IMG/VR virus record: IMGVR_UViG_3300000203_000003
Location: 32,001 to 96,000 of that record
Direction: 5' to 3' (one strand)
Source of the DNA: a virus
Lineage: Duplodnaviria > Caudoviricetes
DNA length: 64,000 bases
Of the stretch, positions 3,142 through 64,000 are shown piece by piece. Every line of letters begins with the position of its first letter. Positions within the stretch are counted from its first letter, which is position 1. The notes below the pieces were generated by a model, which saw only the letters and a program-made list of their open reading frames with translations, was not told the origin of the DNA and made no database searches. The translations under genes and the position numbers were made by a program.

Positions 3142-4188
3142 ATGGCTACAGTTCGTATTCTCAATGGCTCATATCGCAATCAACCTGTGGTCAATCAAAC
3201 ATTCACCTTGGTGAAAGGTTTCCAAACAGGTAAGACGGGTAGCTGGGTCACTGTAAAGAACGAAGGACAGTTCCCGCAGTTCGCTATTGACGAGGTCAAG
3301 ATCAAGGTCGGTAGCATCCAGGAACTCACATTCAACGGCGTCACGGTTGCTGATCAAATTGAAGATCATATCGAACTGGCGCCGGCCAAGCAAGTACAAG
3401 TTGAAACTGACGAGGCAGCAATGGATCGCATTGCTACTCGTTTCTCTGTTTTGGACGACATGTCCAAAGCTGCAATCAACGGCGACATTCGTGCAATGAT
3501 CGTCAGCGGTCCTCCTGGCGTCGGCAAGTCTTTCGGAGTCGAAACGCAACTGAACAAGGCGATCATGTTTGATCAGATCGCAGGCAAGAAGGTTCGCTTC
3601 AACATCGTTAAGGGTGCGATGACCGCGCTTGGTCTTTACGCTCAACTTTACAAATACAGTGACAAGAAAAACGTTCTGGTGTTCGATGACTGTGATTCAG
3701 TTTTCGCTGATGATCTGTCCCTGAACATTCTGAAGGCTGCGCTCGACTCTGGCAAGAATCGCAAGATTTGCTGGAACTCTGATTCGCGTCTGTTGCGCGA
3801 AGAAGGCATCCCGAATCAATTCAACTTCGCAGGCTCTGCGATTTTCATCACCAATTTGAAGTTCTCCAGTGTCAAGTCCAAGAAGTTGCAGGATCACTTG
3901 GAGGCTCTCCAATCTCGTTGTCACTTTCTTGACCTGACCGTGGATTCGGTAAGGGATAAACTTCTGCGTATCAAACAGGTCAATCGGGATGCTGATGGTG
4001 GTCTGTTCGTTGATTATGACTTTGATAACGGTGAGGGTGATATGATTATTGAATACATGGAGCAAAATCAAACCTCGTTAAATGAGATTTCAATGCGTAT
4101 GTGTTTGAAGATCGCCGACCTTGTCAAGATCAGTCCTAGTAACTGGCGCAATCTGGCCAATGTCACTTGCTGTAAAAATAAGCATTGA
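3142..4188 (+). CDS. AAA-family ATPase
   Basis: Walker A GPPGVGKS, Walker B VLVFDD, sensor FITN, ALQSR arginine finger. Confidence 0.85.
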   Translation: MATVRILNGSYRNQPVVNQTFTLVKGFQTGKTGSWVTVKNEGQFPQFAIDEVKIKVGSIQELTFNGVTVADQIEDHIELAPAKQVQVETDEAAMDRIATRFSVLDDMSKAAINGDIRAMIVSGPPGVGKSFGVETQLNKAIMFDQIAGKKVRFNIVKGAMTALGLYAQLYKYSDKKNVLVFDDCDSVFADDLSLNILKAALDSGKNRKICWNSDSRLLREEGIPNQFNFAGSAIFITNLKFSSVKSKKLQDHLEALQSRCHFLDLTVDSVRDKLLRIKQVNRDADGGLFVDYDFDNGEGDMIIEYMEQNQTSLNEISMRMCLKIADLVKISPSNWRNLANVTCCKNKH

Positions 4189-4830
4189 TTTACAATTAGT
4201 GAAGTGGAAACGCTTCATATTTCCTTGACCCCCTGTTTGCCCACATTGTGGGCAAACCAATATTTGCTGTGGTTTGTGCTTTTGTCCGCGATTTGAGTTT
4301 GCTATCTTGGCAACCATTTCCGGAGATTTAGATACACCTAGCATCCTCAAACTTTTCCTTTTATTGGCTTCTGCGGAGTGTTTTGATATTTTCTTACCTG
4401 TCCGTGTGAGGGAGCGTTTCACCATAGAAGCCGCCGACATTTTCCTGCCTAACTGGGCCTTCCGCATTTTCTCTTTGGTAGCGTCAGACAGGGATTTCCC
4501 GGATAGTGCCGTGCGGCGCATCTCACTAAATTCATGTTTCAATGTCTCATATACTCTAGGCGCCATTCGATGAGATCCTGTGTGACACATCAATTTAATA
4601 GCATAAATCATTTTTTCGCGTGCCGCACCTTCAAGCATTTTAGGTAATAACCAGTGGCAGATGAAGTGTTCTCTGGCAGTTAGTTTGACGAGATTATTTT
4701 GGGTGTTATCTCAGCCAATAGACTTGGGTACGATGTGATGCCGTTCTGTATAACAGGGCAATATTCGGTTTTTGGCTCGTTCTATTATTCGGTAATAAGT
4801 TGCGGTATATTTGTTGTTGATAAATATCAT
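4090..4830 (-). pseudogene. HNH homing endonuclease with NUMOD3-like repeats, in-frame TGA at 4711-4713
   Basis: Frame from ATG 4830 reads ...ERHHIVPKSIG*DNTQNNLVKLTAREHFICHWLL, matching the intact paralogue at 14094..14894. Confidence 0.85.
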
Positions 4831-4831
4831 T

Positions 4832-4897
4832 GCTGGTGTCCTCTACGACATTAGAGAGGGCGGAGATTGCAGTCTCGTGGCTCTCACTTCTATTTAT
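4832..4897 (+). ncRNA. endonuclease-associated two-hairpin element, copy 1
   Basis: GCTG-stem-TAG A GAGGGC G stem GTG GCTCTC ACTTCTATTTAT; covaries with four other copies. Confidence 0.7.
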
Positions 4898-4941
4898 TCC
4901 GTTTCTATTGCTTCTATGAATTCAGTAGTGTATAATAAGTA

Positions 4942-7842: not shown

Positions 7843-8518
7843 ACCGGTATTCTCTTGTGAGTTTTGTCGCAGAGTATTCCTTCGTGAGAAAACCATGTTC
7901 ACGCATATATGTGAGCGGAAACATCGTTGGGCTGAAAAAGATAAACAGGGTCCTCGCATCGGCTTTCAAGCATGGCTACAGTTCTATGCGAAGAATTCAA
8001 TGGGCAAGAAGAATCGCACCCAGGAAGAGTTCATCAAAAGCGCATACTACACGGCGTTCATCAAGTTCGGAACATACTGTGCCGGCGCGAATGTTGTTAA
8101 TGTAAGTAGATACACTGACTGGCTGCTGAAAGAACAGATCCGAATTGACAGTTGGAATCAAGATACCAACTATACCAAATTCCTTATAGAGTATATCCGC
8201 GTCGAGGATCCGATGGATGCGCTGGCCCGCAGCATTGAAACGACAATCAAAATGGCTGAAACGGAACGGATTTTGGCGCATGATATTCTGCGTTATGGGA
8301 ACCCGAATAAGATATGCTATCAAATCACGCTTGGAAAGATAAGTCCCTGGATGCTTTACCAGAGCGAAAGTGGCGTAGAGTTTTTATCAAAACTAAATGC
8401 TGACCAAGTACGAATCATTAATGACTACATAAATCCCGAGCAATGGGCAATCAAGTTTAAACGGGATCCGGAATCAGCAACGCAAGTAAAAGACTTATTG
8501 GTCGCTGCTGGCTATTAA
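7802..8518 (+). CDS. hypothetical protein with N-terminal zinc finger
   Basis: FSCEFC...F...H.C motif. Confidence 0.7.
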   Translation: MKKSTNTKPTEETKPVFSCEFCRRVFLREKTMFTHICERKHRWAEKDKQGPRIGFQAWLQFYAKNSMGKKNRTQEEFIKSAYYTAFIKFGTYCAGANVVNVSRYTDWLLKEQIRIDSWNQDTNYTKFLIEYIRVEDPMDALARSIETTIKMAETERILAHDILRYGNPNKICYQITLGKISPWMLYQSESGVEFLSKLNADQVRIINDYINPEQWAIKFKRDPESATQVKDLLVAAGY

Positions 8519-9087
8519 TTTAGCTGCTTTGGTTGCTTTACATTTAGCAATACTTTCAGCAGTATTAGTATTAAGTGTTCCGTTCTTGCGCCTGCTCTCT
8601 TTTAATTTAGCTTTGCTCTCATCAGTCCAAGTATTGAGATTACCGTTTTTGCGTCTGGTAGCGATTCGCTTGGCGATATTCTCCGGAGTAGGTTTTAATG
8701 TTCCGTTTGCTGCCATTGTTGCTAATCTTTTTTTGGTGCTTTCAGGCTTAGTTAAGTATGTATTGTTAGACCTCCGCGCCGCGACGACCTTGGCAATTAT
8801 TTCGGGGGTAGTACCGCCGTTACCGGATTCCGGTTTTAAGTTGGCCCATTCATCACTCTCGACAACGTTCCATTCTTCACTGTAATGGATTCCCATTCTT
8901 TAAGTTCATCTTTGGATTGGCACTCGCGGATTATTTCGGTTGTTATATCTTTGCCGTGTTTATTTAAATGGCGCTCCCAATGTAAACCTGAACCGAGGTA
9001 TTTGTGAGGATCTTTGCGTTTTGTCTGACAGAGGTATTTTAGACCGGTAATATTATGGGTCTTTACCATGAGGTAATAAATAGTCAT
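8495..9087 (-). pseudogene. GIY-YIG (Seg-like) endonuclease split by a 1-nt frameshift near 8892-8894
   Basis: IYYLMVK..KYLCQT..YLGSG in one frame continues as (W)GIHYSEEWNVVES..WANL in the -1 frame; basic repeats follow. Confidence 0.8.
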
Positions 9088-9161
9088 GCTGGTGCTCCTT
9101 ATTTAGTTATAGCATTAGAGAGGGTGGGAAGTCCAATTCCGCGATCCTCACTTCTATTTAT
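9088..9161 (+). ncRNA. endonuclease-associated two-hairpin element, copy 2
   Basis: CTGGTGCT/AGCATTAG stem; GAGGGT G GGAA..TTCC GCG ATCCTC ACT. Confidence 0.7.
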
Positions 9162-9168
9162 CTTCGGC

Positions 9169-9197
9169 TTGACATTAAATCATTTTTATGTTATAAT
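9169..9197 (+). promoter_or_regulatory. sigma70-type early promoter for the small-gene array
   Basis: TTGACA-N17-TATAAT. Confidence 0.85.
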
Positions 9198-14940: not shown

Positions 14941-15483
14941 GTGTCCCACATTATGATCGACTGCGAAACGCTTGACACAAGCCCGTTTTGCGTATTACTT
15001 ACAATCGGCGCAGTGATCTTTGATCCTAAGGGAACAGGCATCATTGACAAAATTGATCTGCGTCCAACGATGGAAGATCAACTTGAACTGGGACGAGTTA
15101 TCAACGATGACACTGTTCGGTGGTGGGGTAATCAATCTGTTGCTGCTCAGGAGGAAGCACTCGGTGACCGTGATCGTATTCCGTTCAAAGAATGTATGGA
15201 GAAACTATACAAGTTCTGCTGGAATCGAAACTATGTCTGGAGTCACGGTGCAGCGTTTGACGTTGTGGCAATGGAAACATCGTGGGCATCTCTTGGCATG
15301 AGTGAACCTTGGTTGTTCCATACAGTGCGAGACACCAGAACTCTGTTTGATGTAACCGGTGTCAGTCTGAAAGATGATGGATATGTCACAACTCACAAGG
15401 CATCAGAAGATGCAGCGCGACAGGCATTCATTGTGCAGAAAGCATATCAAAAACTGATCAAGGCAGGAGTTACCCCTCCGTGA
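14941..15483 (+). CDS. DEDDh 3'-5' exonuclease (DexA-like)
   Basis: MIDCETL, WSHGAAFD, RDTRT, HKASEDA. Confidence 0.85.
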   Translation: MSHIMIDCETLDTSPFCVLLTIGAVIFDPKGTGIIDKIDLRPTMEDQLELGRVINDDTVRWWGNQSVAAQEEALGDRDRIPFKECMEKLYKFCWNRNYVWSHGAAFDVVAMETSWASLGMSEPWLFHTVRDTRTLFDVTGVSLKDDGYVTTHKASEDAARQAFIVQKAYQKLIKAGVTPP

Positions 15484-17251: not shown

Positions 17252-17320
17252 ATAAATAGAAGTGTAGTCCACGAGTCTCTTACCTCTCCGACTACTCTAC
17301 TGCTAAAAAGGAGCACCAGC
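17252..17320 (-). ncRNA. endonuclease-associated two-hairpin element, copy 3 (inverted)
   Basis: reverse complement GCTGGTGCT..AGCAGTAG A GTAGTC G GAG..CTC GTG GACTAC ACTTCTATTTAT. Confidence 0.7.
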
Positions 17321-18000
17321 ATGAGTATTTATTCAAAAACCAATCCTCCCGAAGATTCCTATTTATACGCCTATTTACGAGAAGATGGGACGCCTTATTA
17401 TATCGGCAAAGGGACTTACAGACGAGCCTGGGAAAAGGGTAGAGGAGAAATTCAACTTCCTAGCGATAGAAACAGGATAGTAATATTAGAAGCCGGGTTG
17501 AACGAAGTAGGTGCGTTGGCGTTAGAGCGCCGATATATACGTTGGTACGGACGAATGGATAAGAATACAGGAATCCTTCGGAATATGACGGATGGCGGTG
17601 ACGGGGCAGCGGCGCAGTTCGTTCCGACGATTGTAAATTGTTACATAAAGTTATCACAACTAACTACCATGCTGCCTTATCCGAAACGCAGATAAAAACA
17701 AGGGCTAATAATTGTTCAGCCGGCCAACGAAATCGTTTTAAATTAACGCCCGAGTCAGTATTAACTAAAGAACGAAAGAGCAAATCGCATCAAGGTAAAT
17801 ATCTGATAATTAGTCCGGCCGGTGAATCTCATTCCGCGGCGTCGGGATTAAAAGAATTTGCCCTAATACATGGTGATCTATTGCAGGTAACATATTGGCA
17901 ATTATTCAACGCATATAGAAAATCTTATCATACAATCCCAACCAAAAGAATACGAAGTGATGCAAATAATTGGAAAGTAACCCGCATTGATAACGACTGA
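17321..18000 (+). pseudogene. GIY-YIG endonuclease split by a 1-nt frameshift at GGGG 17603-17606
   Basis: [18 protein letters not shown]...[10 protein letters not shown], then continues in the -1 frame into ORF 17638..18000. Confidence 0.75.
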
Positions 18001-25758: not shown

Positions 25759-26499
25759 ATGGAAATAACGCATCTCGTAGTTAACGGGTGTAGTTGGACA
25801 TATTGTCAAGGACTAGATGATCCTAAAACTCAAGGATGGCCTGCACTAGTTGCCAAAGAGTTGGGGGTCCCTGTTGTGAATATAGCTGTCCCGGGCTCCG
25901 GAAACGATTCTATTCACCGAAGAACGTATGAATACGTTTATCAAAACTTACCGACCGGAAGTAACCCTTTATTTTTAATTTTCTGGAGTCAATATTGGCG
26001 CAGAGAAGCTTGGTGTGAGTTTGGATTCGGTGTTAAAGACTACAGAAATGTAAATGTTAATCAATATAGGACAGTTGAACATGAGAATGCATTGCTGGCT
26101 CACTGGAGCGAGGAAGATTTTCTTAGAAGAACTATGCTATATAAGTTATCAACAATAAACTTATTTACTGCGAATAATATTCCATTTTTGATGTCTGATT
26201 ATTGCCCGGCATTCACTGAGAATATGCAACCCGGCATCGAACATAAAATGCTATCATCGATCAATAATAATCCTAACCATTTAATAAGTCCGGAGCTATA
26301 TACTATTAGAAGGTCCTATCCCGAGTTACCATGCGGTCACGACGGCGCCCTGGCTCAAATAGCAATAGCCGGATGGTGGATCAGACATATTAATATGCGT
26401 TATAACGGGCTGACATTTAGCCCTAACCCCACTGAATCATTTATCACACTTGATACCTTTATTATAGAAAAGGATTCTGAACATGTCCATTGGAAATAA
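25759..26499 (+). CDS. SGNH/GDSL hydrolase-like protein
   Basis: NGCSWT, NIAVPGSGN, CGH. Confidence 0.7.
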   Translation: MEITHLVVNGCSWTYCQGLDDPKTQGWPALVAKELGVPVVNIAVPGSGNDSIHRRTYEYVYQNLPTGSNPLFLIFWSQYWRREAWCEFGFGVKDYRNVNVNQYRTVEHENALLAHWSEEDFLRRTMLYKLSTINLFTANNIPFLMSDYCPAFTENMQPGIEHKMLSSINNNPNHLISPELYTIRRSYPELPCGHDGALAQIAIAGWWIRHINMRYNGLTFSPNPTESFITLDTFIIEKDSEHVHWK

Positions 26500-31980: not shown

Positions 31981-32069
31981 TAAATAAACTCATACACTCT
32001 CATTCTGAGAGTTTATGCTGTAACCCACAGCGTAGGACTAGAACTCCACACAACCTAAAGGAAAAACAA
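31981..32069 (+). promoter_or_regulatory. late promoter plus structured 5' leader
   Basis: TAAATA, then ACTCTC/GAGAGT and TATGCTGT/ACAGCGTA hairpins. Confidence 0.55.
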
Positions 32070-33251
32070 ATGGGACGCCCTCTTAAAATCGCCAAATCAC
32101 AATTCGTTGGCACAATCACCGGAACAACAACCGGTACAAACATCGTTACTTTCATCCCTGCTATAACTGCTACTGTTAACTTCACTGTAGGCATGCCTGT
32201 CGTTGTATCAACTACCGTCAGTAACATCATCGCCGGAACAACATATTGGGTACTAACTATGCCAAGCACATCGTCTATGACGTTAAGCTCGACCCCGTTA
32301 GATGCTAATATCAATAGGACACCGCTTGCACTTGGCACAGTCGGCCCGGTCACTGTTGGTTTCACTGTCAATTTAGTTGACTATGGTTTCAACAATCCAA
32401 ATGGTGCAGCTAACACATACAGCGTTGTCGGTGGCAACACCGGAAGCTATGGCAAGCAAGTTCTTGCTGATGTTGCTATCGGTCGCGTGGGCGCCGGAAC
32501 AGTAACATTGAACGGTACGGCTGGTAAAGAAATGTGGGGCGCTGGTACAGACTTTGCTAACACGTTGTCAGTTGGATCGTCAGTTGAACTGGCAGACGGC
32601 ACTATAGCAGGTCATGTCGCAGTGATTCCTGGCTACATCGTAGTCGCAGTTACAGATACAGAAGCAGTCGGTAGTATTGTTGTTGCAGTTAGCACAGCAG
32701 CAATGAACGCTCTTCAACCAATCGTGTTCAATGCTGATATCGGTAATTTAACAGCCGGCACAGTGTATTGGGTTCGTGATATTCTGAGTGTGACAGATTT
32801 TACTGTCAGTATGCAGCGCAACGGTTCTTTAGTAACGCTTGCTGATGATTCAGCAGTTGTGACTGGTCATCAAGATTATGTCGTGATGGGCGCTATCACT
32901 CCGCAACATTATGCACTGTCTGCTTGGACATATGCTGATAACGAATCTGGTTTCATCGTCAGACAAAAAGGTCGTAGCAAGTTCCTTGTAACTGGTCTGA
33001 CTTCAGGTCTAACTGGTGTTTGCTACACAGCAGATTTAGCAGCAGCAGCACTTGTGCCCGGCACAATGCGAGTCTCTGCAACAACAGCGGCACCGGCAAC
33101 TGTATTATTAGAAAGATTAGCTGATCATACAGCCAGAGGATTTGGTAACACTGATACTGCTACAGCATACTACGCATCGTTTAACGCAGCGATTGCAGCA
33201 AATGCAACGCCAAGTCAACCGTACGGAGTGATTACTGTTAATAACTCTTAA
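32070..33251 (+). CDS. putative virion structural protein
   Basis: MGRPLK start, Thr/Val/Gly-rich, IVRQKGRSKFLV. Confidence 0.65.
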   Translation: MGRPLKIAKSQFVGTITGTTTGTNIVTFIPAITATVNFTVGMPVVVSTTVSNIIAGTTYWVLTMPSTSSMTLSSTPLDANINRTPLALGTVGPVTVGFTVNLVDYGFNNPNGAANTYSVVGGNTGSYGKQVLADVAIGRVGAGTVTLNGTAGKEMWGAGTDFANTLSVGSSVELADGTIAGHVAVIPGYIVVAVTDTEAVGSIVVAVSTAAMNALQPIVFNADIGNLTAGTVYWVRDILSVTDFTVSMQRNGSLVTLADDSAVVTGHQDYVVMGAITPQHYALSAWTYADNESGFIVRQKGRSKFLVTGLTSGLTGVCYTADLAAAALVPGTMRVSATTAAPATVLLERLADHTARGFGNTDTATAYYASFNAAIAANATPSQPYGVITVNNS

Positions 33252-34163: not shown

Positions 34164-34763
34164 TTAGACTATGCCATGATGTGCCCTACATTTATCAAAG
34201 TGCCATCTACCCATGGCACTTGCGCCCCCTGATGTGCCGCAATGAGGACATTCTACAATCGGTTTAGGTATACCGGATAACGCCTCGCTGATTTTAGGAT
34301 TCTTTCGACCAGTAAGGGTGGCGCTCACCCAGGGCTGTTTCTTTCCGCGCTGTCTTTCACTCTTTGCGGTATTCTGGTCAGCAGTGTGTTTTCCACCAAC
34401 TAATTTTTGTCTAATCTTTTCTTTAACACATTCAGTTACTTTTTTGCCCAAGTTAGCTTTTCTAATTTTATCAGTATGTGATTTAGATTGTTTATAACCA
34501 CTAGTGCCTTCTCCACCATCTGTTAGGTTACGAAGTACCCCGGTCCCTAAATCTTTTCTACCGTACCACTTAATTAGTTGTCGTTCTAGTGCGAAAGCAC
34601 CTATCTCGGTTAAGTTCCGTTCTATTATAATAATTCTAGATTTTTCAGGTACTTTAATACGGTGGTTAATAGAGTCATATGCTCTACTGCCTTTTCCCTT
34701 GCCTATATAATACACGGTGTTGTTGGTTTTACGCAAATATGCATAAACATAATAAATAGTCAT
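34164..34763 (-). CDS. GIY-YIG homing endonuclease with NUMOD3-like repeats
   Basis: YVYAYLR..YYIGKG..NLTDGGEG; start placed at ATG 34763 after AAGGA RBS. Confidence 0.88.
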   Translation of the reverse strand: MTIYYVYAYLRKTNNTVYYIGKGKGSRAYDSINHRIKVPEKSRIIIIERNLTEIGAFALERQLIKWYGRKDLGTGVLRNLTDGGEGTSGYKQSKSHTDKIRKANLGKKVTECVKEKIRQKLVGGKHTADQNTAKSERQRGKKQPWVSATLTGRKNPKISEALSGIPKPIVECPHCGTSGGASAMGRWHFDKCRAHHGIV

Positions 34764-34829
34764 GCTGTGATTCCTTTCAATCATAGAGTAGTTGGGGAGT
34801 GGACGCCCGCGAACTACACTTTTATTTAT
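34764..34829 (+). ncRNA. endonuclease-associated two-hairpin element, copy 4
   Basis: CTGTGATT/AATCATAG; GTAGTT G GGG..CCC GCG AACTAC ACT. Confidence 0.7.
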
Positions 34830-39325: not shown

Positions 39326-40531
39326 ATGGCAACTCGTAAACACAAAAAGACAGAAGACCACAGTCAAGTCAAGGCGCTGAACCCGCGTGATGTTGATCAA
39401 AAATATCTCGGCGACGAACCTCTGTTCGCCGAACAACCTGCAGCCGAGAATCGCAACTCAGCGATTGCCCGCGGTCTCGCATGGTATCATCGTTTCTACA
39501 CTCGCAAAGATGCCCGCGATATGCTGGCAACTTATCTTGACATTCATGAACGGACAGCAGATGCCAAAGTCATGCGTAAAGTCGATGAGGGCGAGTTCCG
39601 ACTGCCCACATTCGCATGGCTGTCTCGCATGGTCCTACGTGGTCTTGAACTGACAGAGCATGAAATGCTGTCATTGGAAAACGAAATCTCCAGGCTGCTG
39701 TTGACTATCAACAAGCCCGAAGTTAAGGTGACAAGCAAATTCACAACTGCGGCAAAGACTCCTGAACAGGCTGCAACTGCTAAGACAAACATCCAGGAGA
39801 CAATGCGTGAAAAGGCGCGTGAGGCTGCAGGTGAATTGGAGGGACTGTTTGATGACTACCTCACAGCAGGACAACCCACAAAACATTCGCTGCGTCCAAT
39901 GGATGAAGTGGCTAAGAAGAATGTCATGGTTCAACACATATCCATGCTCCGTGAAGTCTGGAACAAGAAACTTGCTGAAATGAATGAACTGCTCGAAGGC
40001 AAGGACGCTCAATTGGTTCAAGCGTACAGTCATTACAGCAAGCAACAAGTCAAGAATACGATCAAATTCATTGAGTTAATCATCAATGACCTCAATAGTT
40101 ATGTCAGTCTCAAAAAGACAACGAAAGCACCGCGCGCTCGTAAGGCGAGCCCGGTGGAAAAAACGGTCTCAAAAATGAAATATATGAAGGCGTTCAATGA
40201 CCCGGCAACAAAAGTAGATTTGATCAGTATCAGTCCTATTAAGGTACATAACGCCGAAGAAGTGTATCTGTATGATACCCAACTACGGAAGTTAACATAC
40301 CTAGTAGCCGATGAATATAGCAAAACTATGACTGTCAAAGGCACAACTATTTTGGGCTTCGACACAGCAAAAAGCCAGACAAAGACACTGCGTAAACCGG
40401 CAGAACAACTAAAGGAATTTCTGAAGTTGGGCAAACCGGCCGGACGAAAGTTTTTCGAGGCTATTCGGGCAGTAGCAACTATTCCCAAAGGTCGAACAAG
40501 CGACCGGACTATTATTTTGAAGGCGTCGTAA
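39326..40531 (+). CDS. phage hypothetical protein
   Basis: TTGACA-N17-TACAAT promoter at 39280; VKGTTILGFD..KTLRKP C-terminus. Confidence 0.75.
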   Translation: MATRKHKKTEDHSQVKALNPRDVDQKYLGDEPLFAEQPAAENRNSAIARGLAWYHRFYTRKDARDMLATYLDIHERTADAKVMRKVDEGEFRLPTFAWLSRMVLRGLELTEHEMLSLENEISRLLLTINKPEVKVTSKFTTAAKTPEQAATAKTNIQETMREKAREAAGELEGLFDDYLTAGQPTKHSLRPMDEVAKKNVMVQHISMLREVWNKKLAEMNELLEGKDAQLVQAYSHYSKQQVKNTIKFIELIINDLNSYVSLKKTTKAPRARKASPVEKTVSKMKYMKAFNDPATKVDLISISPIKVHNAEEVYLYDTQLRKLTYLVADEYSKTMTVKGTTILGFDTAKSQTKTLRKPAEQLKEFLKLGKPAGRKFFEAIRAVATIPKGRTSDRTIILKAS

Positions 40532-41234
40532 TCAACTGCCAACCCTTCACTGTCCTTACGGCACCGCGCACCATCTTATTGACGTTGCGCGATTCCAATT
40601 TATGACTGGTATAAAAATCGTGACGAGTTGTAAAAACTTCCTCTCCTGTATCTTTATGCCTAAAACCATATATTGTGTGATCATAACTGTGGTGCCTTCG
40701 CCCAGCAAAAGGGGATGTGCCATCCGGTTTGCGTGAAAAAGGATTGACATATCCCGGTATTAATGTTTTGGTTTTACTAACACTAGAACCATCTTCCCTC
40801 TTAAGGAGATTGTGTGTTTTATTCAGTACACGATCAATATTATGATTACTACCGTCCGGTCTAGTTTGCCATGGATGTGTTCCTTTCGTTACACGATCAG
40901 TTTGTACATTTGTTCCATCCGGTCTTGTCTGCCATGGATGTGTACCATTAATCACTTGTTGTAAATTTCTAGCCCGGTTGAGTTCAGATAATATTTCTGC
41001 AGGCATTGTCATTTTGCGCCCTATAAGCAGACATGCTCCGAAGTCTGATTGCCTATAATGAATATCATAATGCTCCTGGATACTTAGGGCTGCTAAATTA
41101 GATGGGCCATTGTTAGTACGATCACCATCTAAATGATGAATGTCATATGTGCGTCCGGTTACATCTTTTGGGATCGGACCGATATGGTTCTCGTATATTT
41201 TACGATACTTAGTTGTTCCACAATAAATACACAT
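40512..41234 (-). CDS. HNH homing endonuclease
   Basis: YDIHHLDGDRTNNGPSNLAALSIQEHYDIH; GTHPWQ repeats. Confidence 0.88.
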   Translation of the reverse strand: MCIYCGTTKYRKIYENHIGPIPKDVTGRTYDIHHLDGDRTNNGPSNLAALSIQEHYDIHYRQSDFGACLLIGRKMTMPAEILSELNRARNLQQVINGTHPWQTRPDGTNVQTDRVTKGTHPWQTRPDGSNHNIDRVLNKTHNLLKREDGSSVSKTKTLIPGYVNPFSRKPDGTSPFAGRRHHSYDHTIYGFRHKDTGEEVFTTRHDFYTSHKLESRNVNKMVRGAVRTVKGWQLITTPSK

Positions 41235-41299
41235 GCTGATGCCCTTTCACGGCGTTAGAGAGGGTGGGCCTGCCAGCCGCGACTCTCACTTTTATTTAT
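41235..41299 (+). ncRNA. endonuclease-associated two-hairpin element, copy 5
   Basis: CTGATGCC/GGCGTTAG; GAGGGT G GGC..GCC GCG ACTCTC ACT. Confidence 0.7.
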
Positions 41300-41355
41300 T
41301 CCGTTTTGATTGATTTCCTGTAAAAGATTATGTATAATCAAGTTTTAGGAATAAT

Positions 41356-56403: not shown

Positions 56404-56434
56404 AAAATAGCTCGGTTCGCCGAGCTATTTTTTT
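56404..56434 (+). terminator. intrinsic terminator
   Basis: AAAATAGCTCGG-TTCG-CCGAGCTATTTTTTT. Confidence 0.9.
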
Positions 56435-56469
56435 GGATACAGTGTTTAGAGACAAACGATAAATACTTG

Positions 56470-57030
56470 ATGAGCGAATATTATGTATATGCCTACTTGA
56501 GAGATGACGGAAGTCCGTATTATATAGGCAAGGGTAAAGGAAATCGAGCCTACACTAAAAGTAAGGGCGAGATAAGTAAACCCGTTGACAAAACAAGAAT
56601 CGTTATTTTAGAACAAGGATTAGCGGAAGTTGATGCCTTCACATTAGAGAAACAGATGATTGGCCAGTATGGACGTAAAGATAATAACACCGGAATACTT
56701 CGTAATAAAACGGACGGTGGTGAAGGCCCGGGCGGAATAAAACAATCACCGGAAGTTATTGCCCGACGAGTGGAGTCCTCTAGAGGAAAATCAATGGGTA
56801 TGACAGGAAAGAAACATCGTCCGGAATCAAATGAAAAACGAAGGCTATCGATGCTAGGTAAAAATACCGGGACACATACGATTGAACATTGTATTGCTAG
56901 TGGACTACCCAAACGCGGAATGAAATATAAATCACAATATAAACTCGTATGCCCGCACTGTGATAAATCAGGCGGTAGCGCAAATATGAAAAGATATCAT
57001 ATGGACAATTGTAAACAAATAGAAAGATAA
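56470..57030 (+). CDS. GIY-YIG homing endonuclease with NUMOD3-like repeats
   Basis: YVYAYLRDDGSPYYIGKG..NKTDGGEG; GKKHRPES; CPHC tail. Confidence 0.88.
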   Translation: MSEYYVYAYLRDDGSPYYIGKGKGNRAYTKSKGEISKPVDKTRIVILEQGLAEVDAFTLEKQMIGQYGRKDNNTGILRNKTDGGEGPGGIKQSPEVIARRVESSRGKSMGMTGKKHRPESNEKRRLSMLGKNTGTHTIEHCIASGLPKRGMKYKSQYKLVCPHCDKSGGSANMKRYHMDNCKQIER

Positions 57031-57039
57031 GGTTATCCC

Positions 57040-60000
57040 ATGCAGCAAAACATAGACTTCGGTACGTTCCCAGATGATCCTGATGCGGATGCGATACGAA
57101 CAGCCTTTCAGAAGGTACAGACAAACTTTGATGAGTTGTTTGACGTAACTGCAGGTGCGGCGGTTAACTCTGTTAATAGAACCCCGGGTATAGGTATACA
57201 AGTTAACTCACCTACAGGCAACGTAGTTGTCAGTGCTAACATCGCCACTATCCCGATGGACACAAGTACATTGAGATTACGTCTGGAGAACGGTCTCCCG
57301 GGAGCTAACGGAGTTATCATTACCGGGCCCGGTAGAACAGTTTTTGTCGATCTTCCAAATAGCATCACCACCAATAACTTCACTGCATCAGGCTGGGCGA
57401 ATGTAACAGGTAATGTTATCGGTGGAAATATCAATACCATTGGACAGGTCGTTGCATCAGGTAATGTCACTGGTAGTAACCTAAACACCACTGGCATCGC
57501 CAACGTTATCGGCAACGTCATCGGTGGAAATCTGACTACTAGCGGCAAAGTTGCTGCATCTGGTAATATTATAGGTTCAAATGTCACCGCCAATCTCGGG
57601 TTGTACGGAACCACTGCGAATGTATCCGGTAACGCAAACGTCGGCAACATCGGCTCAACTAATGGTGTATTCACTGGCAATATCACTGCTGGTAACGTGG
57701 GCGGAGCTAATCTAATAACCGCGAATTATCTACAAGGCACGTTGACTACTGCGGCGCAACCGAATGTCACTTCAGTCGGTGCACTATCTGCGCTTACTGT
57801 AACAGGTAATATAGCCGGCGGTAATGTTAATGCTGGAAATCTACTGACAGCTAACTACGTGCAAGGTACACTGACAACAGCAGCACAACCGAACATTACG
57901 TCAACTGGTACATTAACTGGTCTAGGTGTTAATGGAACAGTCACCGCAGTAAACATCACTGCTAACACCGGAGTATTTACTGGCAATGGTTCTGCTCTTA
58001 ATAATCTCACTGGTGCTAATGTAACCGGTACTGTTGCTAATGCGACATATGCCGTCTCATCTGGTACTGCAGGATCAGCTACTACTGCAGGAACAGTCAC
58101 TACTAATGCACAACCAAATATCACCTCAGTTGGCACATTATCTTCTCTGTTGATAACCGGCAATGCTAATGCAGCAAACTTCAACGGAACATTCTACGGA
58201 GCAGGTACAGGACTCACTGCTATCCCGGGTGCTAATGTGACCGGTACTGTTGCTAATGCAACGTATGCAGTGAGCGCCGGCGGTTCAGGAACGGCCAGCA
58301 CAGCAGGTACAGTCACCACAGCAGCCCAACCAAACATCACTTCTACAGGTACATTGACTGGACTGGGAGTAAATGGTACAGTAACCGCAGTTAATATCAC
58401 TGCTAACACCGGTGTATTCGCGGGTAACGGTTCAAGTTTAACTACGCTAACAGGTGCTAATGTAACAGGTACCGTTGCTAATGCGACATACGCAGTTTCA
58501 TCTGGTACTGCGGGAACCGCAGGCACAGTCACTACAGCGGCACAGCCAAATATCACATCGACTGGCACGTTATCTGCATTGACAGTAACGGGCAATATTG
58601 GGGCAGGTAATATAAATGCAGGCAACATGTTGACTGCAAACTATTCGACAGCAGTTCTAACAACCGCTGCCCAACCAAACATTACTTCAACTGGTACATT
58701 AACTGGTCTAGGTGTTAATGGAACAGTCACCGCAGTAAACATCACTGCTAATACCGGTGTGTTCTCTGGCAACGGATCAGGACTTACCCAGCTAGCTGGC
58801 GCCAATGTAACCGGCTATGCACCTAATGCAACCCACGCTAACATCGCTGATGCTGCAAACGCAGTAGCAGGCGGAAATGTCAGCGGTGCAGTAGGCCTTG
58901 CTACATTCGCTACAACAGCAAATGCAGTAGCCGGCGGAAATGTCAGCGGCCAAGTAAATTACGCAGCAACGGCAAATGCAGTAGCAGGTGCTAATGTCAG
59001 CGACCAAGTAAATTACGCAGCAACGGCAAACGCTGTGGCGGGTGGCAACGTCAGTGGACAAGTCGCTAATGCTCTGGTAGCAGGAACTGTTTACACTGCC
59101 GCTCAACCAAACATAACCTCAGTCGGTACTTTAACCGCAGTAACAGTATCTGGTAACGCAAACGTCGGCAACATCGGCTCAACTAATGGTGTATTCACTG
59201 GAAACATCTCGGGTGCTAATTATGTATCTGCTAACTACTTTACTGGTACGCTGACAACTAATGATCAGCCTAACATAACCAGCACAGGTACATTGACTGC
59301 GTTAACTGTTAATGGCAATATAGGCGCCGGCAACGTCAATGCTCCTACATTCGGAGCACATAACGGCACGGTTGGAGCAACTACTGCGAACACAGGTAAC
59401 TTCACAACAGTTACGGCATCTCTGACAGTTGCAGCAACTGGAAATGTATCAGGTGGAAATCTCACTACCGTCGGCGCATTAAGTGCAACGGGCAATGCTA
59501 ATGTTGGTAATCTCGGCACCGCTGGGTTAGTAGTAGCAACTGGCAACATAACTGGTGGCAATTTAGTAACTGGCGGAGCATTGAGCGTAACTGGTAATGC
59601 GAATGTAGGCAACATCGGAGCAACGAATTATGTAGGTACTGCTATCAACATAACTGCTAATGCGAACATCGGCACCACGTTAAATGTAACAGGCAATGCT
59701 AATGTTGGTAATCTCGGTACTGCTGGTTTAGTAGTAGCAACAGGTAACATAACTGGTGGCAATTTAGTAACTGGCGGAGCATTGAGCGTAACTGGTAATG
59801 CGAATGTAGGCAACATTGGTGCCACATCAGGTGTTCTTACAGGAACGCTAAGTGTAACCAGTAACGCCAACGTTGGTAACTTAGGTACTGCTGGACTTAT
59901 CATAGCAACAGGTAACATCTCTGGTGCGAACTTAACAGGAACTCATTACGGCGCAGCAACTGGGTTGACCTCTATTCCAGGTGCGAATGTAACCGGTACT

Positions 60001-63000
60001 GTTGCTAATGCAACGTATGCAGTGTCATCTGGTACAGCAGGTACTGCTGGAACCGTGTCTACGAACGCACAACCGAATATCACATCAGTTGGTACATTAA
60101 GTTCATTGGCAGTAACCGGCAATGTAAATGCAGCAAACTTCAACGGAACCTTCTACGGAGCAGGCACAGGTCTTACTGCTATCCCGGGAGCAAATGTAAC
60201 AGGTACTGTTGCTAATGCAACTTATGCAGTATCAGCAGGTAGTGCTGCTACAGCAGGCAGCGCCGGCTCTGCAACAACCGCCGGCTCTGCAACAACCGCC
60301 GGTACAGTTACTACTAATGCTCAACCGAACATCACCTCAGTAGGCACTCTTTCCTCGCTTGCTGTAACTGCAACCATTAACACTTCTAACTTGTTAATAA
60401 CTGGAACGGGCGGCGCTGGATTCATAACTATCCCCGGTCAATCACTCAATCCGCCTAATCCGACTGCTGGTAACTTGCTGATCCATGCTAGAACGATTAA
60501 TGGATTCACACGAATTGAACAAGATAATGAAGCTCCGACTAATTTAGTATACGGACGAGACACCGCTATCATCTGTCGCAATGACACCGGCGCGACTATC
60601 AACAAGGGTCAAGCAGTCTATACAAGCGGAACAGTGTCTAACTCACCGCAGATTGCGAAAGCATTAGCATCAGGAGTCGCAACAATGCCTGCGATTGGTG
60701 TTGCTATGGACGATATTCTTACTGGTAACTTCGGTCAAGTAATGGTATCTGGTATCTTGGTATTCGATACATCAGCATATGCACCGAGCGCCCAAGTATG
60801 GGTGTCACCTACAACAGCAGGAGCTTTCACCGCAACTCGTCCTTCAGGATCAAATGTTGTCCAACGCATGGGAACTATAATGGTTCAAGGCGGACCTGGT
60901 GTCGGACAGATGTTAGTTCTCACAGCACCTGCACTCCTGAACATGGAAACAGGAACAGCCGCAGCTACTTGGACTGCGAACTCGGCCATCGCTAACTACT
61001 TTAGTGGCAATGGGGCAAATCTGACAGCATTGACAGGTGCTAATGTAACAGGTACAGTTGCTAATGCAACCTACGCACTGACTTCAGGCACGGCAGGTAC
61101 TGTCACAACAGCAGCACAACCAAACGTAACTTCAGTTGGTACGTTGTCTGTTCTGGCAGTAACAGGTAATATCTCGGGCGCGAACTTAACAGGAACTCAT
61201 TACGGAGCAGCAACTGGATTGACCGCAATTCCAGGAGCAAATGTAACAGGAACAGTTGCGAATGCCACATACGCTATTTCAGCTGGATCATCAGGTACCG
61301 CTGGTACGGTAACCACTAATGCACAGCCGAATATCACTTCACTCGGATCACTTACTGGATTGATCGTCAACGGTAATATCAATGCAGGTAATACAGCGGC
61401 AGGCAACATTGTCTCGGCAAACTACGTGCAAGGAACATTAACAACTGCTGCCCAACCTAACATCACATCAGTGGGGTTGTTGACCGGGTTGAACGTAAAT
61501 GATGGTATCACGGCCGCAAATATCACTGCGAATACCGGCGTATTCACTGGTAACGGATCAAGTCTTACGGCACTTACAGGGGCGAATGTAACCGGCACAG
61601 TTGCTAATGCAACATATGCAGTAAGTGCAGGTTCTGCTACGACAGCAGGAACCGTCACAACTGCTGCTCAACCGAATATTACATCAGTTGGCTCGCTAGG
61701 TGCGTTAACTATTACTGGCAATCTATCATCAGGAAACGCTAATCTAGGCAATCTTGCTAAGGCAAACTTCTTCCAAGGTGACGGGTATCTAATCAGCAAT
61801 CTCACGGTATCAGTCGGTAATGTTATTGTCAATGGTAACAGCAATGTTAGTATTGATCTTAACGGCAATGTGCTTATTTCGTCAGGAGGCAATGCGAACA
61901 TCTTTGTGGTAACAGATACTGGCGCAAATGTAAATGGTTATCTTAAAGTGTCAGGCAATGTTGCTGCTGCTCGTTTTACAGGATTATTAGCAGGTGCATT
62001 AACAATCGCTGCACAACCTAACGTAACAACACTGGGCACTATGACAGCATTGAATGTGTCCGGTGTATCTAACCTAAGTGTAGTCAGCAATGTTCGTATC
62101 TTCGGTGGTAGTCTAAACTATTATATGACCACTGATGGTAACGGTAATCTTTCATGGACATCAGGTGCGTTCAGCCCGTGTGGCGGAACGAATACCCAAG
62201 TTCAGTTCAACGACAACGGAAACTTCGGTGGCAGCGCAAATCTTACCTTCAATGGTAATCTGTTGACTATTATTGGTAACGTTCAGTCGACAAACGTGTT
62301 AGGTGGAAATGTTGTCTCGGCAAACTTCTTCACCGGCACAATAACTACAAACGCGCAACCTAATATTACATCAGTGGGAACATTAACTGCGCTGATTGTA
62401 AACGGTAACATCAATGCGGGCAACACTGCAGGTGGCAATCTTGTATCCGCTAACTATATTCAAGGTACATTAATTACAGCAGCGCAACCTAATATTACAT
62501 CAGTGGGCTCATTAAGTTCATTGAATGTAACCGGCAACGCAAATGCAGCAAACTTTAACGGAGCCCATTACGGAGCAGCAACTGGGCTGACAGCAATTCC
62601 GGGAGCAAATGTAACCGGTACCGTTGCTAATGCAACTTATGCAGTGTCATCTGGCAGTGCAACAACTGCAGGAACTGTCACAACTGCTGCTCAACCGAAC
62701 ATCACATCAGTCGGAACACTTACTTCACTTATTGTAACAGGTAATATTCAGGGATCTAACGTAGTTGCTGCTAACTATGTAGGTGGTACCATGACTACCG
62801 CTGCACAACCCAATATTACTTCTGTTGGCACTCTATCTGCGCTTGCTGTGACAGGCAACATATCATCTGGTAATGCTAACCTAGGTAATCTGGCATCAGC
62901 GAACTTCATCACAGGTACGCTTACTACGCCGGCGCAGGGTAACATTACATCATTAGGAACACTGGGATTATTATTCGTTACTGGTAATATTCAAGCAGAA

Positions 63001-64000
63001 AGATTAATTGCTAACAACACACTGAACGTAACTGGTAATGCTAATGTCGGTAATCTGGGAACTGCCGGACTACTTGTAGCAACAGGCAACGTCTCCGGTG
63101 GAAATCTTACAACTGCTGGAATGTTAACAGTTACTGGTAACGCAAACGTAGGCAACATAGGTTCTAATATATTTACCGGTAACTCATTGACTATATCAGG
63201 TAACGCAAACGTTGCTAACCTAGGAGCATCGGGTCTTATCATATCCACAGGCAATGTGTCCGGTGGCAACATAACGACAGCCGGCAATGTAGTAGCCACT
63301 GCGAACATAACAGGTGGCAATCTAATAACAGGCGGAGTTCTATCGGTCACCGGCAACGCAAATGTTGGAAACATAGGCACCCTAGGGTTGATCGTGGCCA
63401 CAGGCAATATCAGCGCCGGCAACTTTATAACATCCGGCTCTATGTCAGTCACCGGAAATGCCAACGTTGGTAATCTAGGAACAGTTGGATTGGTAGTCGG
63501 CACCGGCAACATTACATCGAACGCAAACGTCATAACAAATAGTATTCTTGGCAGAACATCAGGTGTTACTATCACCGCAGTTGGTTCAGATCAAAATATA
63601 TCTCTGGTGCCAACTGGCAACGGCACAGTTGATGTGGGTGGAAAACGCATATCATCATTGAATGACCCGTTTAATGCGACTGACGCGGCGACCAAAGCAT
63701 ATGTTGATGCAACTACTTCATCATTGAAGGTTCTGGCGTCTGTTGTTGCTGCAACCACTGTAACTCTTACTGCGACCTATAACAACGGTGCCAGTGGATT
63801 TGGTGCTACTCTTACTGCAACAACAAACGTAGTTCTGCCGACAATAGACGGATACACTGGGTTAGTTGTTACTAATCGTGTACTTGTTAAAAATCAAGCG
63901 GATCCTATTCAAAACGGTATATATGTTGTCTCAAGTCTCGGTGTAGTAGGAGTTTCTCCTTGGATACTAACCAGAGCGACAGACTTTGATGGTGTGCCAC
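57040..64000 (+). CDS. giant repetitive tail fibre-like protein (>2300 aa, runs off the window)
   Basis: MQQNIDFGTFPDDPDADAIRTAFQK start; AQPNITSVGTL/GNANVGNL repeats; same frame at window end (WILTRATDFD); absent from ORF track, consistent with no stop in window. Confidence 0.85.
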   Translation, partial: MQQNIDFGTFPDDPDADAIRTAFQKVQTNFDELFDVTAGAAVNSVNRTPGIGIQVNSPTGNVVVSANIATIPMDTSTLRLRLENGLPGANGVIITGPGRTVFVDLPNSITTNNFTASGWANVTGNVIGGNINTIGQVVASGNVTGSNLNTTGIANVIGNVIGGNLTTSGKVAASGNIIGSNVTANLGLYGTTANVSGNANVGNIGSTNGVFTGNITAGNVGGANLITANYLQGTLTTAAQPNVTSVGALSALTVTGNIAGGNVNAGNLLTANYVQGTLTTAAQPNITSTGTLTGLGVNGTVTAVNITANTGVFTGNGSALNNLTGANVTGTVANATYAVSSGTAGSATTAGTVTTNAQPNITSVGTLSSLLITGNANAANFNGTFYGAGTGLTAIPGANVTGTVANATYAVSAGGSGTASTAGTVTTAAQPNITSTGTLTGLGVNGTVTAVNITANTGVFAGNGSSLTTLTGANVTGTVANATYAVSSGTAGTAGTVTTAAQPNITSTGTLSALTVTGNIGAGNINAGNMLTANYSTAVLTTAAQPNITSTGTLTGLGVNGTVTAVNITANTGVFSGNGSGLTQLAGANVTGYAPNATHANIADAANAVAGGNVSGAVGLATFATTANAVAGGNVSGQVNYAATANAVAGANVSDQVNYAATANAVAGGNVSGQVANALVAGTVYTAAQPNITSVGTLTAVTVSGNANVGNIGSTNGVFTGNISGANYVSANYFTGTLTTNDQPNITSTGTLTALTVNGNIGAGNVNAPTFGAHNGTVGATTANTGNFTTVTASLTVAATGNVSGGNLTTVGALSATGNANVGNLGTAGLVVATGNITGGNLVTGGALSVTGNANVGNIGATNYVGTAINITANANIGTTLNVTGNANVGNLGTAGLVVATGNITGGNLVTGGALSVTGNANVGNIGATSGVLTGTLSVTSNANVGNLGTAGLIIATGNISGANLTGTHYGAATGLTSIPGANVTGTVANATYAVSSGTAGTAGTVSTNAQPNITSVGTLSSLAVTGNVNAANFNGTFYGAGTGLTAIPGANVTGTVANATYAVSAGSAATAGSAGSATTAGSATTAGTVTTNAQPNITSVGTLSSLAVTATINTSNLLITGTGGAGFITIPGQSLNPPNPTAGNLLIHARTINGFTRIEQDNEAPTNLVYGRDTAIICRNDTGATINKGQAVYTSGTVSNSPQIAKALASGVATMPAIGVAMDDILTGNFGQVMVSGILVFDTSAYAPSAQVWVSPTTAGAFTATRPSGSNVVQRMGTIMVQGGPGVGQMLVLTAPALLNMETGTAAATWTANSAIANYFSGNGANLTALTGANVTGTVANATYALTSGTAGTVTTAAQPNVTSVGTLSVLAVTGNISGANLTGTHYGAATGLTAIPGANVTGTVANATYAISAGSSGTAGTVTTNAQPNITSLGSLTGLIVNGNINAGNTAAGNIVSANYVQGTLTTAAQPNITSVGLLTGLNVNDGITAANITANTGVFTGNGSSLTALTGANVTGTVANATYAVSAGSATTAGTVTTAAQPNITSVGSLGALTITGNLSSGNANLGNLAKANFFQGDGYLISNLTVSVGNVIVNGNSNVSIDLNGNVLISSGGNANIFVVTDTGANVNGYLKVSGNVAAARFTGLLAGALTIAAQPNVTTLGTMTALNVSGVSNLSVVSNVRIFGGSLNYYMTTDGNGNLSWTSGAFSPCGGTNTQVQFNDNGNFGGSANLTFNGNLLTIIGNVQSTNVLGGNVVSANFFTGTITTNAQPNITSVGTLTALIVNGNINAGNTAGGNLVSANYIQGTLITAAQPNITSVGSLSSLNVTGNANAANFNGAHYGAATGLTAIPGANVTGTVANATYAVSSGSATTAGTVTTAAQPNITSVGTLTSLIVTGNIQGSNVVAANYVGGTMTTAAQPNITSVGTLSALAVTGNISSGNANLGNLASANFITGTLTTPAQGNITSLGTLGLLFVTGNIQAERLIANNTLNVTGNANVGNLGTAGLLVATGNVSGGNLTTAGMLTVTGNANVGNIGSNIFTGNSLTISGNANVANLGASGLIISTGNVSGGNITTAGNVVATANITGGNLITGGVLSVTGNANVGNIGTLGLIVATGNISAGNFITSGSMSVTGNANVGNLGTVGLVVGTGNITSNANVITNSILGRTSGVTITAVGSDQNISLVPTGNGTVDVGGKRISSLNDPFNATDAATKAYVDATTSSLKVLASVVAATTVTLTATYNNGASGFGATLTATTNVVLPTIDGYTGLVVTNRVLVKNQADPIQNGIYVVSSLGVVGVSPWILTRATDFDGVP

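Follow-up and report, generated by a model that had tools for sequence, protein, structure and literature searches.

In the window, by which we mean the whole 64,000-nt stretch analyzed, five homing-endonuclease genes were found to begin with codons that contain the hexamer TAAATA on the opposite strand. Each gene is headed by a short cassette in which a two-hairpin RNA core separates this box from a second, mirror-image one. The window belongs to a 141,978-bp IMG/VR virus contig with an estimated completeness of 41%. The contig comes from a giant T4-like phage, and its tail sheath protein shares about 45% identity with the tail sheaths of jumbo myoviruses, including Atu_ph07 and PA5oct. A pattern scan of the window for TAAATA-N5-GCTG returned five matches, at 4821, 9077, 34753, and 41224 on the plus strand and at 17331 on the minus strand, against 0.19 expected, and none of 100 shuffled sequences reached five. 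The features of the five copies are as follows:

4821-4826, plus strand: copy 1 antisense TAAATA box (GATAAATA), codons 1-3 (ATG ATA TTT A) of the minus-strand HNH nuclease.
4832-4887, plus strand: copy 1 two-hairpin RNA core (P1 with the anti-Shine-Dalgarno loop, and bipartite P2), predicted +1 G at 4832.
4888-4897, plus strand: copy 1 U-rich tail CUUCUAUUUAU, whose minus strand, ATAAATA-GAAGT-G, is the putative sense late-promoter box of the nuclease.
4090-4830, minus strand: copy 1 nuclease, a phrog_655 homing endonuclease (HNH motif ERHHIVPKS) in two pieces, one of 39 aa (4711-4830) and one of 182 aa (4090-4638).
9077-9082, plus strand: copy 2 antisense TAAATA box, codons 2-4 (ACT ATT TAT).
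9088-9161, plus strand: copy 2 RNA core (9088-9151) with U-tail and putative sense box (TATTTA at 9155-9160).
8495-9087, minus strand: copy 2 nuclease, phrog_314, GIY-YIG-type, with a frameshift dividing it into 8836-9087 and 8495-8896.
17326-17331, minus strand: copy 3 antisense TAAATA box, codons 2-4 (AGT ATT TAT) of the plus-strand nuclease.
17252-17320, minus strand: copy 3 RNA core (17262-17320) with U-tail; the putative sense box TAAATA lies at 17253-17258 on the plus strand.
17321-18000, plus strand: copy 3 nuclease, GIY-YIG-type, phrog_15526, split into 17321-17695 and 17638-18000.
34753-34758, plus strand: copy 4 antisense TAAATA box, codons 2-4 (ACT ATT TAT).
34764-34829, plus strand: copy 4 RNA core (34764-34819) with U-tail and putative sense box (TATTTA at 34823-34828).
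34164-34763, minus strand: copy 4 nuclease, GIY-YIG-type homing endonuclease of 199 aa (P0001), intact.
41224-41229, plus strand: copy 5 antisense TAAATA box, codons 2-4 (TGT ATT TAT).
41235-41299, plus strand: copy 5 RNA core (41235-41289) with U-tail and putative sense box (TATTTA at 41293-41298).
40512-41234, minus strand: copy 5 nuclease, HNH endonuclease of 240 aa (P0002; Pfam HNH_3, phrog_12324), intact.

The nucleases of copies 1, 2, and 3 are thus split by a stop or a frameshift, while those of copies 4 and 5 are intact. According to the PHROG and Pfam profiles, they belong to at least three families: phrog_655; phrog_314; phrog_15526 together with phrog_314 (the GIY-YIG-like nucleases of copies 3 and 4); and phrog_12324/HNH_3. 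Among the Pfam profiles, only HNH_3 gave a match, to the copy 5 nuclease, the other copies being recognized by PHROGs.

The reverse complement of each box forms the first codons of the oppositely directed nuclease gene, so that the proteins of copies 1 to 5 start with MIFI, MTIY, MSIY, MTIY, and MCIY. The initial annotation had traced these five starts to TAAATA on the other strand and had placed the box exactly 5 nt before the G of GCTG; both statements were verified at all five loci, and the positions of the putative +1 G (4832, 9088, 17320, 34764, and 41235) were identical to those given there. On the plus strand, positions 4821-4836 read TAAATA-TCATT-GCTGG. The sense strand of copy 1 carries CAGCAATGATATTTA where the other window copies carry CAGCATGNNTATTTA. 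Since the ATG of copy 1 lies one base farther from the RNA, its hexamer is read in a different frame (ATG ATA TTT), and the 5-nt spacing between box and G is unchanged, exactly as had been described. This M-I-F layout was seen again in at least 12 unrelated contigs; copy 1 is a member of a recurrent subtype and no decayed oddity.

Twelve TAAATA-N5-GCTG copies were found in the whole contig, all 12 with the 5-nt spacing and each antisense within the early codons of a nuclease. Read antisense to the nuclease, the cassette consists of (A/G)ATAAATA, a five-base stretch containing the start-codon complement, G, P1, UAGAG, P2, AC, and UUUUAUUUAU. P1 is an 8-bp hairpin whose loop, CUCC or CCUU, is the complement of the nuclease Shine-Dalgarno sequence, and P2 is a bipartite hairpin followed directly by AC-UUUUAUUUAU. 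On the nuclease strand, the last seven bases of the cassette form ATAAATA, followed by five bases and G, which is the mirror image of the first box, facing the gene. This second box was located 3 nt after CAC in 101 of 117 family cassettes, and in all five window copies the mirror-image TAAATA-N5-G boxes are 65-74 bp apart. Because both boxes keep a fixed spacing, the first base of each predicted transcript would immediately precede a helix. In the majority of copies, the predicted antisense RNA would stop a single base short of the AUG, covering the 5′ UTR and the Shine-Dalgarno sequence and leaving the start codon uncovered.

The fold of the RNA core was assessed with comparative methods. 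RNAalifold applied to a MAFFT alignment of the 12 contig copies gave 18 base pairs, nine of them with compensatory double changes and one that is G-U in 12 of 12 copies. A covariance model built from the RNA core without either box recovered exactly the same 12 copies in the contig, and about 90 in loci fetched from IMG/VR. In 99 distinct homologues, 98.9% of the pair cells were standard and double changes occurred in 13 of the 18 pairs, and when the partners were slid by one to three columns, pairing fell to 32%-42%. G-U or U-G filled 182 of the paired cells versus at most 20 unpaired cells, with the G4-U wobble present in 98 of 99 sequences; this alignment was fitted to the covariance model, which favors structure, and the asymmetry was also present in the independent MAFFT alignment. 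As a G-U pair becomes an A-C mismatch on the complementary strand, the selected fold is that of the RNA antisense to the nuclease. The fold energies of the five window copies ranged from -18.1 to -22.3 kcal/mol for the antisense strand and from -10.2 to -16.6 kcal/mol for the sense strand, with modest single-sequence z-scores of -1.4 to -2.0.

A simple consensus terminator scan left P2 unflagged, because its bipartite loop exceeds the limit of the scan. The predicted cassette RNA is best described as a stable, conserved stem-loop RNA with a U-tract that probably serves as its terminator. Rfam gave no match at gathering scores in the window, and around copy 4 only noise at E values of up to 10. 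The ATG within the palindrome CATG opens a short antisense ORF of two to six codons, which is missing from copy 1; for lack of conservation, this ORF was rejected.

To avoid circularity, homologues were gathered with patterns for hairpin P2 only and then confirmed with the box-free covariance model. After the removal of three chance matches, the sample comprised 130 distinct cassettes from uncultured phages among the matches listed. In 123 of the 130, the first G of the RNA was preceded at 4-6 nt by an exact TAAATA, the distance being 5 nt in 98, 4 nt in 14, and 6 nt in 11; the remaining seven had TAAGTA (five cassettes), CAAATA (one), or no box (one). Homologous elements thus kept the box, at a distance from the RNA that stayed within 4-6 nt; the spacing is not strictly rigid, 25 of the 130 boxes being at 4 or 6 nt. 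TAAGTA, as found in five cassettes, should cripple a T4-type box.

The start codon is less tightly placed. It abuts the RNA in 53 cassettes, is 1 nt off in 31 and 2 nt off in seven, and in three cassettes both it and the Shine-Dalgarno sequence have shifted 9 nt into the RNA. The distance from box to start codon consequently ranges from 0 to 11 nt, versus 4-6 nt from box to RNA. Among 40 cassettes with a displaced start codon, the box was at 5 nt in 22 and always within 4-6 nt.

One explanation for these data is that the hexamer arose as a side effect, either of a conserved protein N-terminus (the peptide M-x-I-Y of GIY-YIG enzymes) or of a chance excess of A and T just past the start codon. 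Bacterial and phage genes often have early codons rich in A and U, and four of the five window copies do encode x-I-Y. However, the hexamer is read in all three frames, as x-I-Y, as I-F, as Y-L, or in codons 5-7 (M-S-S-N-T-I-Y), and it occurs in HNH as well as GIY-YIG proteins. Codon usage in 49 distinct M-x-I-Y genes, which were chosen by P2 sequence only and all differ in codons 5-30, argues in the same direction. Codon 2 ended in T in 47 of the 49 while encoding six different residues (T, S, N, I, R, and H). Isoleucine was encoded by ATT in 44 of 44 cases, against a background ATT share of 0.40 and with ATA being the commonest isoleucine codon elsewhere in these genes, and the tyrosine codon, whose third base lies outside the hexamer and is free, was TAT in 36 and TAC in 11. 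With synonymous positions frozen and the residue at codon 2 free, the frozen letters are exactly T-ATT-TA; as the cassettes share descent, these counts are no independent events. A GIY-YIG paralogue without a cassette (56470-57030), which is 40% identical to copy 4 from residue 1, starts with MSEYYVY and lacks the hexamer, and the five matches in the window greatly exceed the expected number. The frame counts, the codon counts, and this paralogue exclude the peptide explanation, and for the reading as a whole, including chance composition, we see next to no probability. Judged from these sequences, the hexamer is constrained as DNA and not as peptide.

The cassette is present in at least hundreds of copies in uncultured T4-like phages. 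Searching 50,697 phage records with copy 1 by blastn gave no match; a second blastn query gave a match of only 23 nt. Followed up with the covariance model, this match yielded a single weak copy (33.5 bits) in a cultured phage, Rhizobium phage RHph_I1_18, around 80300-80370 of MN988519. In this copy the box is 13 nt from GCTG and still beside the TTG start codon; either its position would be tied to the codons here, or the RNA would be 8 nt longer at its 5′ end.

The initial annotation had likened the box to a T4-type late promoter with initiation near GCTG. T4 late promoters consist of a lone TATAAATA, roughly a helix turn ahead of the transcription start, with no -35 element; the box occupies -13 to -6, with A in place of T at -13 in nine of 50 T4 sites, and late transcripts occur on either strand (PMC2988020). 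The cyanophage late promoter is NATAAATA (PMC2984593). The antisense box of the five window copies is AATAAATA or GATAAATA, and across the family TAAATA is preceded by A in 74, G in 22, T in eight, and C in five cases. The antisense box has six or seven of the eight consensus letters (A/G/T/C-A/G/T-TAAATA), short of the full TATAAATA. With the box placed at -13 to -6, the predicted start falls on the sixth base after it, which is the invariant G one base before helix 1.

The same hexamer was also found at ordinary gene starts of the contig. Outside the cassettes, 49 of 144 TAAATA occurrences lie within -70 to +12 of a start on the coding strand versus about 9% expected, which is the highest share among 15 hexamers of the same composition, and TAAATA precedes the tail sheath gene and its neighbors. 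In 23 contig genes with TAAATA-N4-6-ATG there is no space for a Shine-Dalgarno sequence, and this class suggests a transcription start 5-6 nt past the box. As a sigma-70 -10 element TAAATA was rejected, because the consensus of that element, TATAAT, ends in an invariant T, which is absent here. In the 142-kb contig, estimated as only 41% complete, no gp55 homologue was found with the T4 protein and two PHROG profiles. The gp55-type late sigma factor phrog_234 was detected (E ≤ 1e-22) in all five of the other cassette-bearing genomes, which include two complete ones (349 and 361 kb) and phage RHph_I1_18. The geometry of -13 to -6, the motif at gene starts, and the gp55-type sigma factor in relatives lend indirect support to the proposed likeness of the box to a T4-type late promoter with a putative start near GCTG.

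P1 and P2 types are mixed between the copies; for example, those at contig positions 15281 and 106112 have a common P1 and different P2 hairpins, which shows exchange. This mixing, the presence of the cassette ahead of nucleases from at least three unrelated families, and the coincidence of the boxes with its exact borders would all fit a reading in which the boxes are the DNA ends of a portable cassette, that is, inverted repeats for recombination, gene conversion, or protein binding that move an 80-bp module, with the inner box starting no transcription. We consider this quite improbable, as it leaves unexplained the strand-specific selection of the RNA fold, the placement of the box 5 nt from a G that precedes a helix, and the occurrence of the same hexamer at ordinary contig gene starts. 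Promoter and recombination roles of the boxes are mutually compatible.

The genes around the cassettes bear on whom a promoter at the antisense box would serve. In seven of the 12 contig copies and 88 of the 136 family copies, a gene in the direction of the RNA starts 19-103 nt past the cassette. In the other five and 48 copies, respectively, the nuclease is co-directional with its upstream gene and the cassette points into the 3′ end of an opposing gene. The box could be a real late promoter that serves the neighboring phage gene, much as promoters inside the T4 seg and mob genes drive essential genes downstream, the hairpins being a leader or a leaky attenuator of a longer transcript. Homing-endonuclease genes of T4 do embed promoters for downstream genes (PMC2988022), and the majority arrangement would fit. 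Nevertheless, box and fold are kept in the copies that face an opposing gene end, and a hairpin with a U-tract intervenes between the box and the neighbor. Several neighbors moreover have their own promoter directly past the cassette: a perfect sigma-70 consensus, TTGACA-17-TATAAT, follows copy 2 at 9169-9197, and TGTATAAT follows copies 1 and 5. Neither the G-U design nor the anti-Shine-Dalgarno loop would have a role in serving a neighbor, and we regard the neighbor as an unlikely beneficiary. In the co-directional third of the copies the neighboring gene supplies no antisense read-through, which makes a dedicated promoter the simplest source of an RNA with a conserved fold.

The hexamer might instead act in the sense mRNA, either as a 3′ arm pairing with the upstream AUAAAUA of read-through early transcripts, following the scheme of I-TevI and Aeh1 mobE, or as a translational-repressor site by the AUG. 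The two boxes are perfect inverted repeats that could close a long-range helix of 7-9 A-U pairs, and inhibitory hairpins that carry late promoters are a documented control of phage homing endonucleases (PMC2988022; PMC2677866). Compensation was nevertheless found in none of the six variant 5′ boxes (TAAGTA in five, CAAATA in one), all of which face an unchanged 3′ TATTTA, and outward pairing fails beyond the shared A/T, the second pair being satisfied in 23 of 109 cases, which is below chance. The conserved helices belong to the other strand, as the 182 G-U cells would be A-C on the mRNA, and the Shine-Dalgarno sequence is located in the P1 loop, where it is unsequestered. The repressor-site version is further weakened by the distance of 0-11 nt between hexamer and AUG, which suits a start-codon-defined site poorly. 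Taken together, we hold an action of the hexamer in the sense mRNA to be improbable.

What the sequences show is the constraint on the hexamer, its spacing, which strand folds, how the boxes mirror each other, and that the motif is used at gene starts; that the antisense box is transcribed from, that this occurs late, and that the resulting RNA is repressive are inferred. The promoter reading came through each computational check that might have overturned it. On balance, we favor, with some reserve, an antisense late promoter within the nuclease codons that launches an antisense RNA over the 5′ UTR, and the nuclease genes probably carry their own brake. In the proposed mechanism, the TATTTA in the first nuclease codons would provide, when read from the opposite strand, the core of a late promoter of the T4 type (N-A-TAAATA) recognized by a gp55-type sigma factor. 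This promoter would fire away from the gene, starting at the G five bases downstream of the box, and its product would be an RNA of 60-70 nt comprising the G, P1 with a CUCC loop complementary to the Shine-Dalgarno sequence, the conserved UAGAG joint, the bipartite P2, and a U-tract. The U-tract would be encoded by the second, mirror-image TAAATA box, which would at the same time be the late promoter of the nuclease mRNA with the same N5-G geometry. Accordingly placed, the mRNA would begin at P2′ and expose its Shine-Dalgarno sequence in the loop of a weakened P1′, the G-U wobbles allowing a strong fold of the antisense RNA but only a weak one of the mRNA.

The small RNA would be perfectly complementary to the entire 5′ UTR of the nuclease mRNA, as far as the base that precedes the AUG. 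The initial annotation had predicted full complementarity to the 5′ UTR and ribosome-binding site; for the predicted RNA the match is perfect over the whole 5′ UTR and the Shine-Dalgarno sequence, and the start codon usually falls outside it. Pairing, probably begun by a loop-loop contact between the Shine-Dalgarno sequence and its complement, would keep ribosomes from entering or make the duplex a target for cleavage, with little nuclease being made. The two promoters would face each other, and convergent polymerases may interfere across the gap of about 65 bp. Given the P1 sequences that the copies have in common, the RNA from one copy may also target the mRNA of another. A bolder version, which we put forward tentatively and think may well be wrong, is that the cassette is a portable "two-way late switch" composed of convergent gp55-type promoters, one of which doubles as a terminator tail and the other as codons 2-4, and that the pooled RNA from at least a dozen copies acts in trans to repress every homing endonuclease of the phage. 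In this version, the selfish nucleases of giant T4-like phages would themselves carry a restraint that depends on copy number and is exchanged between unrelated nuclease families.

By analogy, the closest known logic would be that of IS10 pOUT/RNA-OUT, with the cassette as a variant of cis-antisense control. In IS10/Tn10, the outward promoter pOUT in the 5′ end of the transposase gene yields a 69-nt stem-loop RNA, RNA-OUT, that is complementary to the initiation region of RNA-IN; the promoters are convergent, and RNA-OUT acts in trans on other copies, which is termed multi-copy inhibition (PMC5006887). The cassette is similar in its predicted RNAs of about 65 nt, its putative promoters that stand face to face, and its at least 12 copies per genome sharing P1. 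It differs in that it heads a phage homing endonuclease and not a transposase, and has T4-type late boxes in place of sigma-70 promoters. Unlike that of RNA-OUT, its overlap comprises the whole 5′ UTR, usually without the AUG, and the RNA has two hairpins with the anti-Shine-Dalgarno sequence in a loop. The two systems have no sequence relationship.

Homing endonucleases of T4-like phages offer a second comparison. I-TevI, I-TevII, I-TevIII, and segB of T4 and mobE of Aeh1 have a late promoter together with an mRNA hairpin that sequesters the ribosome-binding site and is formed only on the longer early or middle transcripts, and hairpins were also reported upstream of metagenomic GIY-YIG and Vsr-like endonuclease genes (PMC2988022; PMC2677866). 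As in I-TevI and mobE, the sense box of the cassette is a putative late promoter of the TATAAATA type, followed by a structured 5′ region ahead of a homing endonuclease. In contrast to them, the fold of the cassette is on the opposite strand, the Shine-Dalgarno sequence lies within a loop, and the coding region contains a further putative late box that points outward. The metagenomic endonuclease hairpins of Dassa et al. (2009), set beside the cassette by description only, may be the same element.

Antisense RNAs opposite mobile genes have also been reported. In cyanophage S-PM2, CfrI is a detected antisense RNA of about 225 nt that spans a homing-endonuclease gene and psbA, is co-expressed with the endonuclease gene, and is thought to be regulatory (PMC2984593). 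It shares with the cassette the T4-like phage background and an RNA antisense to a homing endonuclease, which for the cassette is predicted. CfrI is, however, a single case, while the cassette is an 80-bp portable module of gene 5′ ends, and no relationship of CfrI to the cassette fold was found. The art200 RNA of IS200 is described as a cis-encoded small RNA opposite the tnpA 5′ UTR that represses translation (PMC4513863). It differs from the cassette in belonging to a bacterial insertion sequence, in its sigma-70 transcription, and in its Hfq dependence, and has no sequence or structural similarity to it.

Homing endonucleases need to be expressed just enough to spread without harming the phage, and the controls known for them are late promoters, inhibitory mRNA hairpins, and autorepression. 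If the proposed reading is true, antisense-RNA control would join this list, and the cassette would provide a rare example of a non-coding RNA with a T4-type late promoter of its own. It would also represent a compact overlapping code, with one set of six bases serving both as the core of a promoter and, in whichever of three frames, as codons. The box can be abolished by synonymous changes that leave the protein untouched. As it heads unrelated nuclease families, the cassette behaves as a mobile regulatory part.

The cassettes, modules of about 80 bp that head homing-endonuclease genes and encode a predicted two-hairpin RNA (P1 and P2), were compared across the contig. The copies at contig positions 15281 and 106112 share an identical P1 and differ in P2, as do those at 26213 and 73224, giving mosaic hairpin types in which P2 is of either the GAGAGGG or the GAGTAGT type. 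Since identical P1 hairpins are joined to different P2 hairpins, these sequences suggest that the cassettes exchange parts with one another. In the window, five nuclease genes are headed by cassettes; three of these genes (4090-4830, 8495-9087, and 17321-18000) are interrupted by a stop codon or a frameshift, and their cassettes are intact. Several decayed nucleases whose boxes are still intact were also found in other contigs (L114, L159, L131, and L203). The sole cultured phage found with a cassette was Rhizobium phage RHph_I1_18, with one copy (33.5 bits):

L220 1430-1525, corresponding to MN988519 about 80300-80370: RHph_I1_18 cassette

This cassette precedes a gene with a TTG start codon whose product is a 205-aa "hypothetical protein"; the box-to-GCTG distance in the cassette is 13 nt, compared with the usual 5.

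In the window, cassette copies 1, 2, and 5 are directly followed by consensus sigma-70-type promoters of the form TTGACA-17-TATAAT with TG, or TGTATAAT, preceding the next plus-strand gene:

9169-9197: promoter after copy 2
4918-4926: promoter after copy 1
41330-41340: promoter after copy 5

At 31996-32072 (plus strand), the Rfam model for the freshwater-2 RNA motif (RF02980) matched with 57.2 bits, above its gathering score; the match directly precedes the gene at 32070. A reading frame at 57040-63999 (plus strand) stays open for more than 2,320 codons and continues past the window end. A sixth homing endonuclease (56470-57030, plus strand), GIY-YIG-like, with 186 aa and 40% identity to that of copy 4, lacks a cassette; a hairpin with a T-run lies upstream (56409-56436), and its start reads TAAATA-N4-ATG.

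Contig-wide, a TAAATA box was found 4-6 nt ahead of the start of 23 genes, with spacers of N4 (14 genes), N5 (7), and N6 (2), including:

Window 51717, 52524, 56460, 20461, 23719, 42603, 16469, 34161 (minus), 38528 (minus), and others: TAAATA-N4-6-ATG

This space is too short for a Shine-Dalgarno sequence. If TAAATA is the late promoter, these genes would yield leaderless late mRNAs, which are unusual for T4-like phages.
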